Part shown: positions 11,501 to 23,500 of the stretch, one piece after another
Numbering within the stretch: the first letter of the stretch is position 1
How the letters are laid out: each line of letters begins with the position of its first letter
Origin: Mytilus trossulus
Lineage: Eukaryota
NCBI RefSeq assembly: GCF_036588685.1
Contig: NC_086375.1
Location: 56,978,001 to 57,042,000, forward strand
Reading direction: 5' to 3'
Length of the DNA: 64,000 nt
The notes under the pieces: generated by a model
Told to the model about the DNA's origin: nothing
Seen by the model: the letters and a program-made list of their open reading frames with translations, nothing else
Databases searched by the model: none
Position numbers and translations under genes: made by a program

Positions 11501-14500
11501 GTATGAATGGACTTGCTTCCCTGGAAAGAAAACTGAGATTGTGTTTTACAGTACAAAAGTTATGAGACACAAATCAGACATATGTTTACTACTACAGGGA
11601 TCAATGGTGAGGTCTGACTGACCTGTCCATAGTAAATGTAAATGACTCCCACCTTCACCCCAAGTCCATGATGTCTAAGTTTGGAATAAAATGACAGGTG
11701 GTAGGGTCTAGAAAAGTGATATGCATATGTGTGGCTTATGAGATTGACCTTGTATGTCATTCAATCTTTTTGAAATGAAAAACAGGAATGAATATGGTTT
11801 AGGCATTGGTATCTAAATCTTTTACAAGTTCTCAAAACACACACAAGAGGGTGTGGGGTGACCCTAGGGACTACCCCTTTTTTTCATTTGATTTTTTATA
11901 TTGTCCCATACATGAATATACATAGTTGATGGGTGGGGATCTCGACCGTTATCAAGTTTTCAAACAGGAGGGGTGGGGATCTGGACCGTTATCAAGTTTT
12001 CAAATAGGAGGGGTGGGGACCCCCATGACTTCCCCTATATTTCATTTGATTTGTTATATTGTCCAATACATGAATATATATTGTTGAGGGTGGGGATCTC
12101 ATCTGTTTCTAAGTATCAAACAGAAGTGGGTAGGGTGACCCTAAGGACTCTCCCTATATTTCATTTGATTAGTTCTCACACATGAATATATATGGTTTAA
12201 TTTAAAGGTGGGGATCTCAACTGTTTCCAATTTCTCAATCAGATGACTGCAGGGACTCCCCCAAAATTTCATTTAATTTAGACTGACCTATCAAAATTGA
12301 GAAGAAAAAAAAAACCCTTGAAATTGCAGTAATATGTTTAATTTGAAAAGAATTTAACATGCATTACAAACATTTAACACTGATAAAAAAAATTATACTG
12401 TTACCAGGAACATATATATTGTTAGATAAACTGTTCCCAGCTGTCACTTGTATTGGATTTTGACATTAAAGTTGGTGTACAAAATAATTTCTGCTTTTCT
12501 TTCTTTTAAACAATTTTGGTTTTCAATTCTTATGTTTATATTTATTTACCATGCGTAGCTGTATTTTGTCACCTGTCTGGATTTTTTTAGTTGATAGCCC
12601 CAAAACCCCGATTACCCTTATCCGCTTCCGGAATCGAATCCGATATTGTAATCTCACGGCAGCCATTTTGTATACAATGTTGTTTTTGACAGAAAGTGAG
12701 ATATGATTTTACTTGGATTTACACATTATTTATCAGCGATTTTCTGTATAAAGCTAGCGTATCAAATTGAACATCGCTGTCATGAATAGTAATGATGAAA
12801 ATAAGTTTGAGATCGTTTTTTAGGAAACTTTGGTAAAAATGTTTGCAAAGTTATTTTTTTATTTTCTTTCAACTCAAGGTCCGTCGGTCATCGTAGCTAG
12901 TAATTAAGTAGAAAGTCTGACTGCAAAAGTGGAAGGTCACAGACCCTAGACCACAGCTAATTTGAACCCCTGCGTCCAAATTAAAAAGATTCGAAAATTT
13001 CGTCTTCTAATTCAAAATTGCAGCCAATAGCGTGATCAGTTGAACTTATATATGAAGTTGACTACGTATTGACGACAAACAATATTCCTACGAAATCTTA
13101 ACTCCTTGTCTTTAGAGATTTTCGGCGATTAAATATTTCATACATTTGTTCTTTGACATCTTAGCCAAAAGCTCAACAGTCAGGGTTAGGATGGAAATCC
13201 ATCCAAACTTAAGATTTAGGTATTTGGATGGATATTCCATCCAAAAGAAAAAGGATGGACTTACCATCCATTTGTTTAACAGTTTTAATGGATGGCTTTC
13301 CCTTCCAATTAGAAGATATATGTTTGATGGATAAACCATCCATTTTTTTTCCCTCTGTGCTTGAAAATAGTAGTATACATCTTACACAAATTCAGCAGTT
13401 AGAAATGAATACAGAGAGGATCATCAAGATTGAATGGTCAATAAAAGGATACCATGCTTTTCGGATAAAGCCTCACTCACAAATTGAGTTAGATGTGTTG
13501 CCCGAGGAAGGAAATCCTTTCAGCCAATATGCAACAAAGGTAGTAATGCCACTGCTTCAAGAGATTTCTCCAGATCTTCACAATGTTTCAACCGACATGA
13601 GAGAAGAAAACCACCAAAGGGGACAGCTTATGAAAGATATTGCAGGTTTGTTCATGTTGTTGTTACTCTATTTATATAGTTCATGTACTTTACCATGTTT
13701 ACATTTACCTTGGTTAAAATTTTACTGACACCTACTCATGACAATGTGTCCCCTAAACATGCTAAATGAGGCTAAGTTATACATGTTATATATTCTTTTA
13801 GTCATTTATATATAATAAACACTTTGCAAATTAAAAAGGATTAACCAGTTTTTATCAAAGCTTGGGTAGCTCAATAAAGTCAGTCAGAACATCAGAAATC
13901 TATTATTTTTCTTTTTTTTTGCACAGGAAAACAAGTGGGGAGAGTTCCTGCAAATCTTTGCACAGCTTTCAGAAATATGATTTCTCGGAACACTATCAGA
14001 TGCATTAAGTGTAAAGTCACAGGACCACCAAGACTCTCAGCAAATCCACCATCAAACCAACGATACCGGTCAAACAATAGAGGTCATGACAGACCAGGTG
14101 GGGGAGCAGACATTCCTTGTTCTTATTATTTGCATATACGTGACCGGATGTTTGCAGATACAATGCATATTCTTGAAGACTGTGTACCTCTTAGGGAACT
14201 TGATGAAAGAGTACACGCATGAACATCATGTAAACAAATTTATTGATATCAATTCATACAGCAAGTTCAAAACAACAAGCATTTGTATTCTTAATCATGT
14301 ATGATACACAACATATTATGTAATCATGTTAGATATGTAATATTTTTTTAATATGTATATAAAAATACAACAATATGAAGAAAACATACCCCCACTGTAA
14401 GGATCACCAAACTTTTATAGAATTTGATAATAATCCAAAAATAATCAGAGCATGAAAATTAAACTTGGTAAAAATGGAAGAGACTACTGCAGCATTCATT

Positions 14501-17500
14501 TATAATTCTTTATTTCTCGAATGTCTAGTTGCATTGTTTTTACATAGAATGTCTTCTTAACTTGTAAATAGACATTTGTTGCTCTCCTTAAAATTTATAT
14601 ATATACATATCATTAAATCAAATCAATACAGTTTTACATTCCCAAACACAATCATAATACATGTACTGGTGCGTGGATCCTTAAATTAACATGTTTATTT
14701 TCTTTTCTTAACACTTTAAATACTGTATGAAAAGCAGGGTGAAAACAAAACAAGTACATGATGAATATTAACAGTAGTAAACATTGTGATTAAGTACAAC
14801 ATATGAATATTAGGATAATCCCAAAGTAAGAATTGGGTGGAGCATATAGAAAATAAATTTATCAAAAATATTGTACACACAGTAAAACAAGTAAACAATG
14901 TAAAGTAAAAAACAGTTATCAAAATACATGAAAATCATAGTAATTCAAACAAATGTAAACAAATTTATCAAAATACATGTAGTTTATAACAAATGCAAAA
15001 TCAAAAACATGGTAAATGGAGGAAGATTATAATATAAACAGCAAATTTGGTACTTCAATCATAAATGAATATGACAATCACATTTATTCAGTACATAAAA
15101 TACAAATTAAAATATAAAATTGACATCATTGTACAAATGTCTCTTTTGTGATCATGACGTTATCAGACTACAACAAGTTAATTCAAGACAATGTGATTTT
15201 TTATTTGAGAGGACTTTTACTCATTATGCTTAAAGTAAGATTAAAACATCATAAACAATTTTTGCAAATACTGCCCTCAATATCAACATGATCAATGAAA
15301 TATATACGAGATATGGAATATCACTAGGGTTGATGATGATTGGAACATAAAAGACACAAATTGTAAACATTTAACATTGCAATTTGTAATAATTAACATC
15401 ATGAATGGATGAAAAAAGCCTACACTATCTTGATGTACATAAAAAATGATTATTTGTTTGATTCAGTGCCTTTCTTTCTCCCTCTGCCCTGTCCCCGACC
15501 TCTGCCCCTGCCCCTTGTTTCAACTCTTTCTTTTGGATTAACTCTGTTTTTCCTAACCCATATACGTTTTTTTATATCTGCTATTCTGTCTTTGTCCAAA
15601 GCAATTGCATTTTCACCAGATACAAAAGCTTCTCCCAATTCCTTCCTTTGGGATTCACCTAAGCCTATACCTGGCAAAAATGAGAACTGCTCTGGTGCTT
15701 TCAGGGGAGAAGGTTCTACAGCTTGTTTTTTAACAGTAGATTTGTTCAATTTCAGGAGCAATGATTCTCTTCTTGTCTCTATCATTCCGTCTTTAAAATC
15801 AAGAAGACTCTCATTTTCTTTGAATTTTTTGATGAAATCGTCTGTACCTGTATAGTGGACCTCTCCATTTTCCCTTTTTATTAGGCAGAAGTAAGCTAAT
15901 CTCTCTGCCCCAACTGATGCATTTGTTAACTTGTCAAAAATTTTAAGATTTCGGTCAAAATGCTTCCTTTTTCTATCCTTCTCTCTTCTTTCCATCTGCG
16001 TGGGCGTACCATTTTGTTTGCTCATAAACTTGCCCTTTTGGTTTCTTTTTCTTCCTGTCAAATGACAAGAAGTTAAAAGTGTTATCATTCCATCAAAATG
16101 GTATCATAATTATTTAAAAAGTTTATATAAACAAATGATAAAATGGACAATACATATACATATTAATTTTATACCAGTTTGTTAAGATTGAGTTGTTGTT
16201 TCTACTTATCAAATGTGTTTTTAATAAAGTTATCATCTCTCTAACTTAGTATGTTTTTTTCTAATGAAAAATAAAATAGATTATAGCTACATGTACAACC
16301 AACAGATCTGACAGCTACACAAGGTGTTGGTGTAACCATATAGATCTTGAAATGTAATAATTATTCAAATTGGTACTCAGTTCATTTGCAACACTCATAA
16401 CTAAAAGAAAGTTTAGCGCTTCAATACTGAAAAATTATGTAATCAGTCATGGTTTGCACTATTGTTTAGAACATAAATTGTTGGTTTTCTTGTTTGGAAC
16501 ACATCATTTTGGGGTCTTTCCAGCGTGCTAGGTGGAAGAATCTTTTGCTCCATGTTGAAGGTAGAAGTGACCTATAGCTGTGTACATCATTTGGTCTCTT
16601 GCAGAGAGTTGTCTCATTGGCAATCAGACCACATTCTTTTCATTTTTAAAATATGTACTTACTTGGACTTGGTGTTTTTGAGGTTGATGGCACTTCTTCT
16701 ACTGCATCTAACATAAAGGTTGATGGTGTTGGTATAACTGGACTCAACTCTTCAGGCATTACGTCATCTCCTAAGTCCACCTCATTACTATCAACTATGT
16801 CAATAGAAATCGGCATAATGGTAGATTCTCCTCCTAAAGTATCAACAGCCAAGTCATGAAGAGAAGGTGCATCTAGATCTTCGTCATTTACTGTGTCCAT
16901 AGCTATATTATTTAGGTGGATATCTATAATATTGCCTTCATTTTGTAACCCATCATCTTCTGCAAACACTGTTCATAAAGAAAATAAAAGTACAAAAAGT
17001 CAATAAATGTTTTGTCTCAATTTGTAAACATGACGTTTTCCCTGTTTTAGTATTATGGCTTCTTATATTCATATTGTAGTTGCCATTTATCAGGTTGAGG
17101 AGGGCCCAAGGCACAGAATATGGACATTTATTATAACTGCAATTAATATGATAAACATGATCAATATCTGAGATTTATACTTTACTAGTCATGATAGTGG
17201 CAACATTAATGAAACAGAAAGATGCCATGAATTAAGAACATTTTCATCATAAATTAAATTCAAAAATGTTTAATATTTACTATATATGATAAATTCAAAA
17301 CAGATTGTATTAGACATTGATAAAGAAGTTGAACTTTCGCAATCTTACCTAAATAATTTTCCTGATTTTCTGCTGCAATCACAAGGTTATAAATAGGGTC
17401 ATCAATTCCTTCTGAAAACAGTAAAATTTATTAATCAGCTGATTGAAAAAATGGATCAATTATGCATGCTACAGTCAAATTATTTCTTCTAATTCGAAGA

Positions 17501-20500
17501 TGCAATTATTAGTAATTTTTTAAGCATGCAATCAGGCAACTGTACGTGTACAAAAATCATGCAATTATCAATATTTTGTTCCTTAATAAATAAAGTTGTT
17601 AAATTATCATACAAATGGTAGTGTCATCTAAATTTAAAAAAAAAATAACGTTCATTTCAAAGTTCTCCCTAGATAAAAGAGTCCAGCAAAGTTCTAAAAC
17701 ACATTTAAATTGGTGTCTCGATTTTAACATGGGATAAAATTTAGTGAGCTTTACATACCACACTAGCATTATAAGTTCTCCAACTCTTCATTTAAGAAAT
17801 TACTATCCCCATCTACACTGTCAAGATAAGCAGCAGCAGTTGATATTTCCTCCAAAAACTTTATATGATCCTCCTTCCGAGTGGTTTTACTTCTTATCAT
17901 TTCCCTATATAAATCAAGGAACATGAGCTTATTAATTTCATCAAGATCATCAATTGTATCTAAAATTTTGTTGTCAATCTCTTGAATTGTAAGTGAATCA
18001 ACAGACAAATATTTTTCTCTCTCTGATGGAAGAATGTAGACAGGATGGTGAATGGATGGATCATTTGGTGGTGGCTGATGTAAAAGCATATCCATTATTC
18101 GATAACCTCTCTTTCTATTTGATTCTCTTGTAAAATACAACAGTTCTTGATCTAGAATATCAGCTGAAATTGATGTTAATACTGGTCCATGTTTTTGGTC
18201 ACTTATATAACCAGTTTGTCGAAGGCGTAGTCTCCACTCATTTATAGGAGCTTCTAAATCTGGTTCTTTTCCATGCAAGTCCTCATATACGCTTCCTACA
18301 ATACTGGTTACAGATTTTTTAATCTGTTTCAGTGATTGATTATTTCTACAAGTTGACAACCATACTTTTTCAGTTGGAACACCTCGTTTCAACCATGTCT
18401 TTACAGATTTATTTTCTTCTTCAAGAATGAAGTCAAACCCTTGACCTTTGCTCTTATTCCCTGATTTGGATAGACTACAGTGAGAGGCAAAATGTGTTTT
18501 TAGTTCAACTGGCATTAGCTGATGTACAAAATGATCAAATACTTCAATGTCTTGGTATTTGGGATGGTTCCTTCCATGAAAGAGCTCCTTACTCATAAAT
18601 TTTCCTGCTTGCAGAAGAATGTAATTGTTGCGTCTCACAGCCATTCTTATATTTATGATAGCTTGAGTATACCTACATACCATTTCAAATAGATACAGAT
18701 AATTCGCATTGTCACTTTTTGTCTTTACATATGAAATGTAGTCTTGAGGACTAGGATCATGCTTTTCATGTAGACATTTTTCAACATATGGCTTGACCAA
18801 CTCTAAAATTGTACCTAAATGAAATATCATGATGAGTTGCCATGTCTTGTGGTTGTCAGAACATGCCAATGCTGATTTCTGGGCCTTTTCAGATCTAAAT
18901 CCCATTACCTCAACTAATGATTTCATGCATACATTCCAGTTCAATTCCATAAAGCTCTTCATAAGGTTCATTTCATAATGACCATCACCACAAATAAGGA
19001 ATACCCAATCAAATTCTTGAACATATCGTGATCTTGTATTAGGATGTGCTTTGACTTCATGATCTTCAACATTCTTAATACCTAAAAATCCTTCTTCACA
19101 TTCTAAGCATACAAAGTACTCTTCAACAACTCTTCGTACCAATCCATGCGGAAGCCCATCACAGCAAACGAATGTCCAAAATCTTTTTGGGGTTTCATCA
19201 TCGTCTTTCAAATATTTAGAAATTCTTCCTTTTTTACCAATATGTCGTAGAACTAATACGATGCTGTCAATAGAATTGGGATTTACAAATACAGGATCCA
19301 ACAGACAAATTTCAGCTGGAATGTCATTATGTGAAGATTCAACATGGCTATATTTCTGTGGATTTTCAACAACTGGTTTGGAAATACCATACTCATTGAC
19401 AGTGCTTTTTCTTGAAAAGTGTTTCTGTTTGACACCATCAGTACTTTTAGTAGTCTTTGCTTCTATCAGCGCCTCATGACACTGTGAGCATTTTCTCTTG
19501 TTTTTCTCAAATAAGCAGCCACACCTTGGACATTTTTTATATTTCTGTTCTATCTCTAATTCAACAATAGTTTTGTCCACATGATCCTTCCATAGATTAT
19601 TTTCCTCGTCAAATATAACTTCCTCTGACACTTGTTGGATAGCTAAGTCCAATACATGATACAGTTCATTGTAGTGATTTTGCTTAATATCCGAATAAAA
19701 ATCTGTACTTGTATCTTGACTATCACCTGACTGACACATACTTTCTATAATGTTCTCTTTTCCTTCAGAAGTTATCCACTTTCCTGGTGTTAAACTTTCA
19801 TTCTGTTGAAGGTTTTTGTTTTCTGTTACCTTTATTGCAGCAACATTTGTAATTACAGACATTTTGACCTTATTATTAGCATTTATGTTCCAACTTCTCC
19901 CTATGACCTGTTCATTATCAAAAACGAATATTACATCCCCACTTGGACAATTGGTCTCTCTTCCAATATTTATATCTGAAACAAAATTATATACTGTGGC
20001 ATATTTTGCCCCTGGAATAGCAGTTCCCAAAACATTACAAGCCGTTTTGTTTTTGGTAAAGGAATAAACAACTAAGTTCTGCATAAAAGACCAGGCTCCA
20101 ATGAACTGAGGGTCGCATAAACGATAAATACTTTCAAGTACCGGAATGAAATTTTCTACTTTAATTGTTGTTGTTGTTTTTCCAGTGAGTGCCAAAACAC
20201 ATTGTATAACAAGCTGATCAAACTGATTAATGTACTCATTGATATCGATGCTCTCAAGTGTTTTCAGATTGTTGTAGGGAAAAGACTTTTGATGATTTTG
20301 TATAATATTTTTCATTTCCTGATTAGTATGAACATGTCCAATCATTTTAGCTATACATTCAAGTTTTTCAGATATTTCTAACGAGGAAAATAACTGTAAT
20401 AATTCATCCATAACATTGTCAGTAGAACATCCTGGATTGTTCGAACTGCAAATTTGACAATCAATGGAATGAGCATGGTACTGGTATAGTTTTATATTAA

Positions 20501-23500
20501 CTGTGGTATTGGAGCTTTTTTTCCGAGTAGATCTATATCTAAACAGAATGCTTCTACATGCATTACACAAAAAATCTGGATGAATCAAAGGGTCATCTTC
20601 ATGCAAACAGATATCAAATATATCCATTAGTTCCTGCGTAAATTTAAATTTTCCTACTCTTTTTTTACACTCAGTCTGCCTGCAACAGAGACGGCACAAA
20701 TTTTGAAGCCTTTTTACATGCTCTGAAATAAAAAAAGAATATTATAGGACAGTTGATATCAAGTGAACGCAAAAATTTTGAAGTCATTAATTTGTTTCTG
20801 AATTTATCACAGCTTAAAATTTACACTAAATATAAAAAATAGAAAATGTGGTATGATATCCAAGGATCCAAGATTGTTAATGTCAGCAATTATATATATA
20901 TCCGTATTGCCTTCAATGAAGAGCAAAAGCCCACACCTCATAGCAAGTTAAATTTTAAAAAATACTGGCCATGGCCATCTTATTTCTTCAAAAGAAATAA
21001 CCAATATCATAGATTTAAAACAAACCTTCTGTCTGTAAACTTATAAATTAATAAGAAACTAAGGTCTGGTTTTGTTAAGGGACTAAGGAAAAAAGTATAA
21101 TTGTCTTGGGGCCGGATTCAGAATAAAAGCAAAACTATCATTTGACTATGTAAAATGTAGGATTTTAAAAAAAAAAAAAATTTCGGGACAGACTATATGT
21201 GAACCAAATCTAGTTTAGTTAAAATTCACTACTTAAAATGCCAATAAAACTTAAGGGTCGACGTTTTGAGCATGTTGTTCCATTAAAAAAAATATGGTAC
21301 GCTTACGGAACACCAGTATACTTATTTTATTTCATCCTCCTTCATCAAAGTTCATTATAAACCATTGAATTTATGTATACTGGAGATAAATGGGCAATCA
21401 TTCATGTCAGACTGTTAAATCATGACAATTATGTTCTACATCTAAAATCCATGCGGGGTATTTAAGACATCATGCAAAACATGCAACTTGTACTTTCATT
21501 TGGTTTGGGGTGGGCTACATGCACTGTTTAAAATTCTGTACACAAAAGTAAATCTTAACAATTCTGACAATATCATACACTGAAAATGATAATTCATACT
21601 CACTTTTTAAGTAAAATTGTAAGACATAAATTGTGACAATTATTTGGGTTTCAGTGTGTCATACAATTTTTCTTCAAAATATTGAGGACAGATTATTTAT
21701 TAAAAATATATAGCTTTCAGACATTAAAGCCAAATTTGTATCTGTAACTTTGTGTATCATGTTTATTATCACATGCCTATTCAGAAAATGATCTGATAAG
21801 GACAAAAAACAAAAGTTGTGTTTACCATATGTAATGTAATCTGTTGAAAAAAAGGGATGTCACAGTAAGTCAATTTTTATTTTATTGAACATGTTGAATT
21901 GCTATTTAGTTTATTTATTGCATGTTTTAGTGTGTTATTGCAATATCAGATCCAGAACAGGTGAAACTGTTATATATATATAGAAGGGATAGGCAAAGAA
22001 CCCTTTAAATAAGTGAAATTCCGTTGAAATAAAATTTAAACGTCACGCAAAAAAGGGGGGTCCACCCAATCATGTCAATATAACAGCACATGTGGGTGAA
22101 AGACAACCAACAGAATCGTAAAGCAGACGGATGGAATTTCCATCCACTTTATGTATAAAATAATGGATGGATTTCCCATCCACTATTATTAACAAAGTGG
22201 ATGGATTTTCCATCAAATTTTGTCTATACGCTTTTTTAAAATAGGATGGATTTTCCATCCAAATTTCAACGATCGTTTTCATGTGGCAGAAATGCATCAG
22301 ACGTTCGGTCAACGTTCGGACATTTCCCGTTGATATTTTGGGTCATTAGGCTATTTTATCATTAAATGTATATCTTATGAATGAAAATATGCCTGTTTTT
22401 ATCATGAGGAAATATTTTGAGCTCCACAAATAGCTATATTCTTACCAGGTATGCTCGGATCGTTTTCAGGTTCAGTCGCCATTTTTCCGTGTTATTGTTG
22501 ATACGAAAATCACGTGATCGATGACAAAACCTCGTGATAACCTATGCTATTTTTACCACGGGATTTTCCTCTAAATTAACACCGATATGCAACGTACACG
22601 CTTAAAATATTCGATTTTCTTTAATACGCAGTATTGGATGGATTTAACATCCAAATATGAGGGATGGATTTCCATCCTAACCCTGACTGCTCAATGGATA
22701 ATAAACTACACAAGGATTCATAATGAGCTCTACTTCCTATGGGCAACTTCAAAACTTTTGGGAAAATCAACAATCATTTAAGGTTTTTCTTGTCATATTT
22801 TTTGTAATCCAGAATGAAAAGTATGAAAAAAACTGTCCAATAAGTTATAAATAATAAAGTAGCCAGCAAGATGATAACAATGGCACGTATTTCAGCATTT
22901 ATTGGGTAGCACACAAATCGAGGGTGCTCGCATAAGGCAGCTTAACTGCCTAAAAATGAGAGATATTTTGAATGCATTTTCCTGAAATTTGACCTGTCTT
23001 TAAAGTAAGTTATTTGAATTTTGACAAATGAATGTAGTTAAATGTCAATTATTTAAAACTTGTACTAAGATAAATAATTAATCAACAATCAAAACTAATT
23101 TTAATACCTATGTGATGTGATATCTGATGAAATTTTAAAACCTTGAGATCTATATAAAAATCTGATGACCTGATGGAAAAGATTTGATTAAGTAAGGTAT
23201 TGGTTTTGAATTCCTATTAATAGCCTATACACCTATTAGAAGAGTTCCAACAACATTATATCACATGCAATGAATTAGATAATAGTGTCCAACCTGATGA
23301 CATATTATTTCAACTTTGAAATTTATCAACAACTAAAATAATGCTATACTTCTGTGATTCTCTATCATAATTAACTCAATATAAATCAAGCTTTCTCCTT
23401 CTAAATTAGTGGCACAAAAAAATATACAGGACATTACCTCTAAAAAGTGTGTCAAAGCTTCCCCAGCTGTTGAGGTAGGTGGTGTAGCAAATAATGTAGC

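Follow-up and report, generated by a model that had tools for sequence, protein, structure and literature searches.

HIRAN-like genes on DNA transposons with unrelated transposases in the mussel Mytilus trossulus

A small HIRAN-like gene lies inside a recently mobile DNA transposon in a stretch of 64,000 nucleotides from Mytilus trossulus (GCF_036588685.1, contig NC_086375.1, positions 56,978,001 to 57,042,000 of the forward strand; the whole stretch is called the window). This gene is an intact, spliced passenger of the element, likely borrowed and not a required partner of its transposase as RAG2 is. Homologues of the gene sit within pogo elements, and it is absent from sister elements that appear active. 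We tentatively favour, at just short of even confidence, the reading that it is an optional accessory whose product likely binds free host-side 3' DNA ends at the excision break, favouring templated repair and copy gain.

Results

A recently mobile element

The element that hosts the gene is 9,513 bp long (window 13177-22689) and has perfect 28-bp terminal inverted repeats (TIRs). Their CAGTC start is common to all three copies of the element and to its sister families, and the window element is flanked by the 5-bp target-site duplication (TSD) CTCAA. The genome contains two additional full-length copies, 99.9% and 99.8% identical to the one in the window and each with its own 5-bp TSD; the transposase is intact in one of these and carries a stop in the other. 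An empty site, at which the TSD occurs once inside a high-copy host repeat, is present in a single contig as well as among raw reads. All nine GATGG-N4-6-CCATC palindromes in the 64-kb window sit at the two ends of the element. The window element is a recently mobile cut-and-paste transposon. We also considered joints across the element with extra letters as excision footprints and rejected them, as they are better explained by variants of the surrounding high-copy host repeat.

A two-exon gene of 178 codons

The two exons of the HIRAN-like gene join into an open frame of 178 residues that ends at 14222. The structure at 13405..14222 had been predicted from the letters alone, and was borne out by the open reading frame, by skipping of the intron in assembled reads and by the database protein P0038, which includes all 178 residues at 100% identity and is annotated as an uncharacterized mussel protein under three accessions. 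The original prediction that the gene starts about 230 bp inside the left end and points to the transposase also agrees with the sequence: the start is 228 bp from the element end at 13177, and the transposase is on the minus strand.

Skipping of the 281-nt intron is seen in contigs of three of the four runs of a first set (three studies), whose status as probable RNA is a tool's guess; the fourth run does not cover the gene. In a second set the joint appears in none of four runs, two of them large runs of unknown kind with contigs that extend into the intron and two without coverage of the joint. Two raw-read RNA runs, of which about 6% was read, do not cover the gene, and none of the datasets that hold it is on record as RNA. 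The intronless relatives P0006 (39% identity) and P0012 (36%) align across the exon junction, and a homologue at G000:C11:9158847-9159747 has a GT donor and an AG acceptor at the same protein position as the window intron. Further in-frame ATGs upstream (13228, 13255, 13288 and 13327) were rejected as starts: they are inside the subterminal repeats, conservation in the family sets in close to 13405, and the frame is broken in other samples by indels at 13343-13376.

Predicted HIRAN fold and its pocket

A stand-alone HIRAN domain is the predicted fold of the 178-residue protein. Its AlphaFold2 model (predicted local distance difference test score, pLDDT, 87.7, from a 100-sequence alignment) matched HLTF HIRAN in all of the top 10 rows of a Foldseek search, with probability 1.0 and a best template modelling score of 0.81 on the target. 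VIA superposed this predicted model on 120 of 121 residues of HLTF HIRAN (Z 13.6, root-mean-square deviation (rmsd) 2.3), with bacterial lp_0118 (Z 8.9) and then Rad5 (Z 7.0) as runners-up. An ESM Atlas search with exon 2 returned only unnamed clusters, below 0.9. The window protein thus shares its predicted fold with the HIRAN domains of HLTF and Rad5 (PF08797; PDB 4xzg, 6kcs, 4s0n, 6l8o) and with lp_0118 (3k2y), and the N-x-(Y/F)-D and G-x-V-P motifs align. It differs from HLTF HIRAN in being stand-alone and transposon-borne, at 13% identity, with two insertions, a serine for D94 and a score under the Pfam cut-off.

HLTF HIRAN binds the primer 3' end via D94, which reads the 3'-OH, and Y72 and Y93, which clamp two bases (PMC5773155). 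The aligned pocket motif of the window protein is N37-P-F39-S40, and its nearest in-genome homologue likewise has no equivalent of the D94 aspartate. Because N-x-(Y/F)-D is largely kept among 86 relatives (N in 81/86, Y or F in 59/86, D in 76/86), the family looks, at the level of sequence, like a binder of 3' ends. It also shows G-Y-H-x-F at the strand that presumably corresponds to that of the second clamp tyrosine of HLTF, Y72. A D-x-x-GGG motif is conserved in, and specific to, the family of the window protein.

Alternatively, the HIRAN fold could have taken on another task: its changed pocket and Arg-rich loop would bind duplex or structured DNA (such as the subterminal palindromes), RNA or a host silencing factor, and the protein would so regulate the element. 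The serine in place of aspartate at the 3'-OH position, the two insertions and the conserved, family-specific D-x-x-GGG would fit this, and in several HIRAN relatives the start lies 200-300 bp in from an end where short palindromes abound. We nonetheless think it unlikely, as the aspartate is kept in 76 of the 86 relatives and the palindrome sequences vary between families whereas the protein is conserved.

A profile search places the family at 534 clusters (E<=1e-3), with lengths of 73-281 residues in the best 150 of them. Crude ratios of nonsynonymous to synonymous substitution (dN/dS) against two in-genome homologues are 0.12 and 0.24, where synonymous sites are close to saturation; between families the gene is under purifying selection. 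The original prediction had proposed this ratio as a check across copies; there it is uninformative, with 0 and 1 differences in 818 bp among the three copies.

Sister elements without the gene

Transposases of the window type give 63 matches in the genome. We examined 19 regions for sister elements, and five are bounded at both CAGTC ends, with lengths of 18-24 kb and a TSD that is exact over 5 bp in four and a 6-bp match in one. None of these five has a HIRAN match inside it with two profiles, which tiny exons or very divergent genes could escape. Three of the five have an intact transposase and second copies that are 96-99% identical. Three partly bounded families have no HIRAN match over their shared spans, and the same is true of the decayed closest in-genome relative. 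In a FastTree tree of 41 rows, the HIRAN-less families other than that decayed relative form a clade separate from the window element, so their lack of the gene applies to a clade other than the window element's own. The original prediction had said that absence or decay of the gene in related autonomous elements would count against it; this is partly the case, and such absence extends to intact and recently copied sisters, which belong to this different clade. Two sister families stand close together in the genome: a complete 24-kb sister (G000:C1:28202898-28227101) lies head to head with, and a few kb from, a copy of the other (G000:C1:28181778-28195553).

Other HIRAN homologues occur near transposases of the same type in varied arrangements. 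At two decayed same-type transposases (G000:C5:43126354 and G000:C7:50483388) HIRAN is upstream and points away, and at two further loci HIRAN-like genes are near transposase fragments. We had considered the first of these as cargo of an EnSpm-like element and rejected this: a zinc-finger frame there overlaps and truncates the HIRAN gene, which is upstream of the decayed same-type transposase. The homologues at G000:C11:9159747 and G000:C10:46072002 start 260-280 bp inside a similar end, with no window-type transposase in the 30 kb read. A search of viral contigs found no related loci, and one of metagenome contigs only three short ones; downstream of one of these is a weak fragment of a transposase of the same type (E 0.014).

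Several of these and other loci have features of their own. The HIRAN homologue at G000:C10:46071694-46080500 (L099) is frameshifted and sits 260 bp in from a CGGTCAGG-type end; after it come a Ulp1 protease fragment (E 1e-6) and opposite-strand frames that have no Pfam match. The closest HIRAN homologue (55%) and the end of its element are inside a large, decayed inverted duplication at G000:C11:9150470-9161500 (L061, L062). A 254-codon frame with a weak HIRAN match faces unannotated plus-strand transposase-like frames at G000:C8:12752000-12759100 (L176), and a HIRAN frame above the Pfam cut-off is part of a 14-kb repeat whose two copies (G000:C5:69070900-69085300 and C5:55331700-55344900; L172-L175) share about 97% identity. 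P0190, a close transposase relative (52%), and P0037, of the HIRAN family, both have a longest contig of 861,750 bases, which hints at one shared element.

Homologues on pogo elements

A PF08797 scan of the genome gave 17 matches from 18 candidates, and the window gene was not among them. The loci that were then read include a four-copy family in which a HIRAN frame lies between the TIR and a pogo transposase; two copies have both ends and are 5.3 kb long. In this family (G000:C3:64401466-64406808, L162, and three more copies) a 135-codon HIRAN frame is upstream of an intact 634-codon transposase frame. In a second family HIRAN is inside shared ends with a DDE_1 frame, and at a single locus a HIRAN that is homologous to the window family (hhalign 97.6%) stands directly before a pogo transposase. 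These pogo (DDE_1) elements resemble the window element in having a small stand-alone HIRAN gene, homologous to the window family, inside TIRs. They differ in their unrelated transposase and in a HIRAN that is shorter, lacks the two insertions and is on the same strand as the transposase.

This recurrence within TIR-bounded elements of another superfamily does not sit well with the gene being neutral cargo, captured and hitch-hiking with no benefit to the element, nor do a dN/dS well under 1 between families, a kept intron and transcript, and the 534 clusters. Many active sisters do without the gene, and a number of its homologues in the genome are broken or stand as orphans, as might be expected of such cargo; we nevertheless consider this explanation very unlikely.

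The transposase unit and its relatives

The main transposase exon encodes an RNase H core with a RAG1-NZD/Chapa-like zinc finger at its N terminus, a G-x-G-H-x-E motif, and inserted C4 and C2H2 fingers (Table 1). The likely catalytic residues are D269, D522 and E768 (numbered from 20723 downward), and these positions are conserved in aligned homologues (D269 in 56/57, D522 in 58/59, E768 in 55/55), as is H582 (57/57). All of the named homologues, which belong to bivalves, an annelid, echinoderms and a lancelet, are uncharacterised. The N-terminal finger matches Pfam RAG1_imp_bd at E 1e-4 here and, over the cut-off, at 2.6e-9 in a sister, and PDB 21wb at E 0.043. DUF6589, which we take to be a mark of Academ transposases, is matched weakly and under the cut-off, at E 0.004 in the window transposase and 1e-5 in a sister. 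Precomputed domains on 61 transposase homologues include RAG1_imp_bd in 21/61 and DUF6589 in 10/61.

Splicing of exon A straight to 17411 would skip the large exon in frame and yield a hypothetical 336-residue product; this joint was not seen in contigs. Such a two-product layout would resemble that of En/Spm. A Pfam scan of the downstream-exon frame gave no match of note; sister families have similar downstream frames, some of which end in a Tudor/chromo-like motif. An intron of the unit contains a piece of a host repeat with a very high copy number (window 16587-16634).

Table 1. Positions of features of the transposon in the window
Feature	Position	Strand	Remarks
Left TSD, 5 bp (CTCAA)	13172..13176	.	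sequence
Left TIR, 28 bp, start CAGTC	13177..13204	+	
Left subterminal palindromes GATGG-N4-6-CCATC, 4 copies	13190..13341	.	putative transposase binding sites
HIRAN-like gene, exon 1	13405..13645	+	ATG at 13405
HIRAN-like gene, intron, 281 nt, GT-AG	13646..13926	+	skipped in contigs of 3/4 runs
HIRAN-like gene, exon 2	13927..14222	+	stop 14220-14222; Arg-rich inserted loop ahead of conserved D-x-x-GGG motif
Transposase unit, downstream exons 17411-17349, 16968-16663, 16054-15450	15450..17411	-	three joints in contigs; second frame, acidic then basic
Main transposase exon (996 aa with exon A)	17769..20722	-	RNase H core, N-terminal zinc finger
Right subterminal palindromes, 4 copies	22130..22260	.	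fifth inside TIR
Transposase unit, exon A, start codon, 12 codons	22446..22482	-	intron 20723-22445 follows; joint in one contig
Right TIR, 28 bp	22662..22689	-	
Right TSD, 5 bp (CTCAA)	22690..22694	.	

By sequence, only the N-terminal NZD of the transposase matches RAG1/Transib. A model of the transposase (pLDDT 72.5) gave VIA Z scores of 9.3-9.5 with P element, 7.2-7.7 with Hermes, 5.5 with RAG1 and 4.3 with ProtoRAG, all at rmsd 6-8. Foldseek returned no significant match for this model, and RAG1 is absent from the 50 rows of a wide VIA search. With its CAG ends, a modelled core nearer to P/hAT, a weak DUF6589 match and a RAG1-type N-terminal finger, the transposase is probably not RAG/Transib-like.

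Convergent genes and TSDs of 5 bp characterise RAGL elements, and ProtoRAG TIRs start with CAC (Martin et al. 2020, PMC7204232). The window element is like them in its two convergent genes between TIRs, its 5-bp TSD and its RAG1-type N-terminal finger (NZD/Chapa), and unlike them in its CAG ends, its HIRAN-like second gene, the inconstant pairing of the two genes and its core nearer to P/hAT. The original prediction had likened the gene to RAG2L of ProtoRAG. The convergent position stands, and the rest of the analogy is not supported, given CAG and not CAC ends, no kelch propeller, and core scores higher for P and Hermes than for RAG1 and ProtoRAG. The analogy with RAG2 is positional only, because there are sisters without HIRAN, its placement varies and pogo elements carry homologues.

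That the HIRAN-like protein is an obligatory transposase subunit, a functional parallel of RAG2L, is for these reasons very unlikely. Such a role would suit the convergent layout, the 5-bp TSD and the RAG1-type finger, the first two of which RAGL elements have as well (PMC7204232), and a need confined to the window clade could hold even so, as the HIRAN-less sisters are of a different transposase clade. Set against this are the absence of the gene from all five bounded sisters, its varying orientation, its homologues on pogo elements, a fold unlike RAG2, ends that are not CAC, and core Z scores of 9.3 for P and 7.7 for Hermes against 5.5 for RAG1 and 4.3 for ProtoRAG. Complex prediction for transposase residues 150-970 with the HIRAN-like protein, in which alignments were not used, scored 0.04 and 0.00 and speaks neither for nor against binding.

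Academ elements carry a DNA-processing accessory, an XPG nuclease or a RecQ helicase. The window element resembles AcademH and AcademX in its weak DUF6589 match and in having an accessory gene of a DNA-processing type; it differs in its 5-bp TSD, its non-catalytic HIRAN-like accessory and its Chapa-like N terminus. The scanned coding exons have no Pfam match to XPG or a helicase, and the element has no other long frame. Academ TSDs are 3-4 bp (AcademX) or 9-10 bp (AcademH) according to PMC10045372, and neither length is that of the TSDs here, which are 5 bp in 3/3 copies and in 4/5 bounded sisters, the fifth having its 6-bp match.

The definition of Chapaev/CMCT given in PMC12730594 includes CA..TG termini and a TSD of 2-5 bp. 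The window element agrees with it in these termini, TSD length and the Chapa/NZD finger, and a conserved C-x2-C and H-x3-H might fit it as well. Both C539/C542 and H716/H720 are conserved; the two cysteines, however, match a C2H2 finger formed locally with H555/H560. The window transposase differs in having C-x2-C in a compact C2H2 finger, and also in its G-x-G-H-x-E motif, its DUF6589 similarity and a predicted structure that favours P/hAT. As the features of Academ and of CMCT both fit only in part, we leave the lineage unplaced: it consists of Chapa-plus-DUF6589 transposases and is not ProtoRAG. In PMC4411706 and bioRxiv 10.64898/2026.01.24.700457 the Chapa/NZD finger is described only for Chapaev and RAG1-like proteins; here a finger like it (window 20420-20722, minus strand) stands at the head of a core with DUF6589 and P/hAT-like features.

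Discussion

The HIRAN-like gene is conserved and transcribed and has moved around within elements; active sisters lack it, and elements with unrelated transposases carry it. For these reasons we read it as an optional helper that acts on something common to all cut-and-paste elements. In DDE enzymes the active site holds the 3'-OH ends of the transposon itself after excision, so the ends left free to be bound would be those of the donor break or nearby nascent strands. The HIRAN-like protein may cap the 3' ends of the donor break, or those of nascent strands where a fork is close by. Such capping would tilt repair of the gap towards a templated route, in which the element could be restored from the sister chromatid and its copy number would rise. 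Because such a benefit would come via host repair, and no contact with a specific transposase would be needed, the gene could be gained, moved and lost. Both 3'-end binding, which the original prediction had also proposed, and the function proposed here are suggestions from a modelled structure.

Several points weigh against an optional accessory that binds the ends of the donor break. The HLTF pocket is not intact in the window protein, which has Ser40 at the position of D94 and a phenylalanine at that of Y93. Two family-specific insertions (about 24 and 20 residues relative to the pogo-borne HIRAN), one of them Arg-rich, could change the ligand. A search of the spliced protein P0038 with Pfam HIRAN (PF08797) gave no match, and its relatives fall below the gathering score (best 23.5 versus 24.7 bits); four of the seven close relatives scanned do match PF08797, all under the cut-off. 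The HIRAN similarity claimed in the original prediction thus holds by predicted structure (HLTF Z 13.6) and not by Pfam. Sister families without HIRAN are equally or more numerous in the genome, and a gain in copy number is not visible. Lastly, the choice of the donor break over a fork or a transposon end is one that we infer by reasoning.

A different use of the same ligand would be for the protein to steer or time transposition at stalled forks via nascent 3' ends, through jumps from replicated to unreplicated DNA or through integration at forks. The window protein and HLTF have the HIRAN fold in common, HLTF HIRAN acts at stalled forks (PMC5773155), and PMC3417536 derives HIRAN from the replication apparatus of tailed phages. 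A role at forks would however require some connection to the transpososome, and this is difficult to reconcile with the unrelated transposases that carry the gene and the close sisters that do not, and the three insertion sites yield no usable target bias. We consider this route improbable, and prefer an optional accessory acting at the donor break.

The HIRAN domain, two-gene DNA transposons and the DNA-processing accessories of Academ are already known. What the present case adds is a HIRAN gene on a second, unplaced transposase lineage, where it is dispensable among sisters. We found no published work on HIRAN genes in the DNA transposons of eukaryotes, judging by titles and the beginnings of abstracts; a description in Repbase or in supplementary material may exist. 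It is conceivable, though we hold the idea with some doubt, that stand-alone HIRAN serves cut-and-paste transposons of animals in general as an accessory that can be swapped, captured separately by pogo and by the Chapa-plus-DUF6589 lineage and hijacking host break repair or fork processing for net copying, and that the lineage itself, with its RAG1-type finger and P/hAT-like core, is undescribed.

A family made up of over 500 unannotated protein clusters from invertebrates thereby gains a context. The work also places a Chapa/NZD finger at the head of a core that looks more P/hAT- or Academ-like, unlike the range of Chapaev and RAG1-like proteins for which the two sources describe it. Copy gain of cut-and-paste elements depends on host repair of the donor break and on timing in replication, and to our knowledge the element-encoded factors that control this repair and timing are barely known. 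The recurrence of a small, non-catalytic protein of predicted HIRAN fold on unrelated transposons would make this control step testable, with a compact, intact three-copy element in hand and its HIRAN-less sisters as natural controls.

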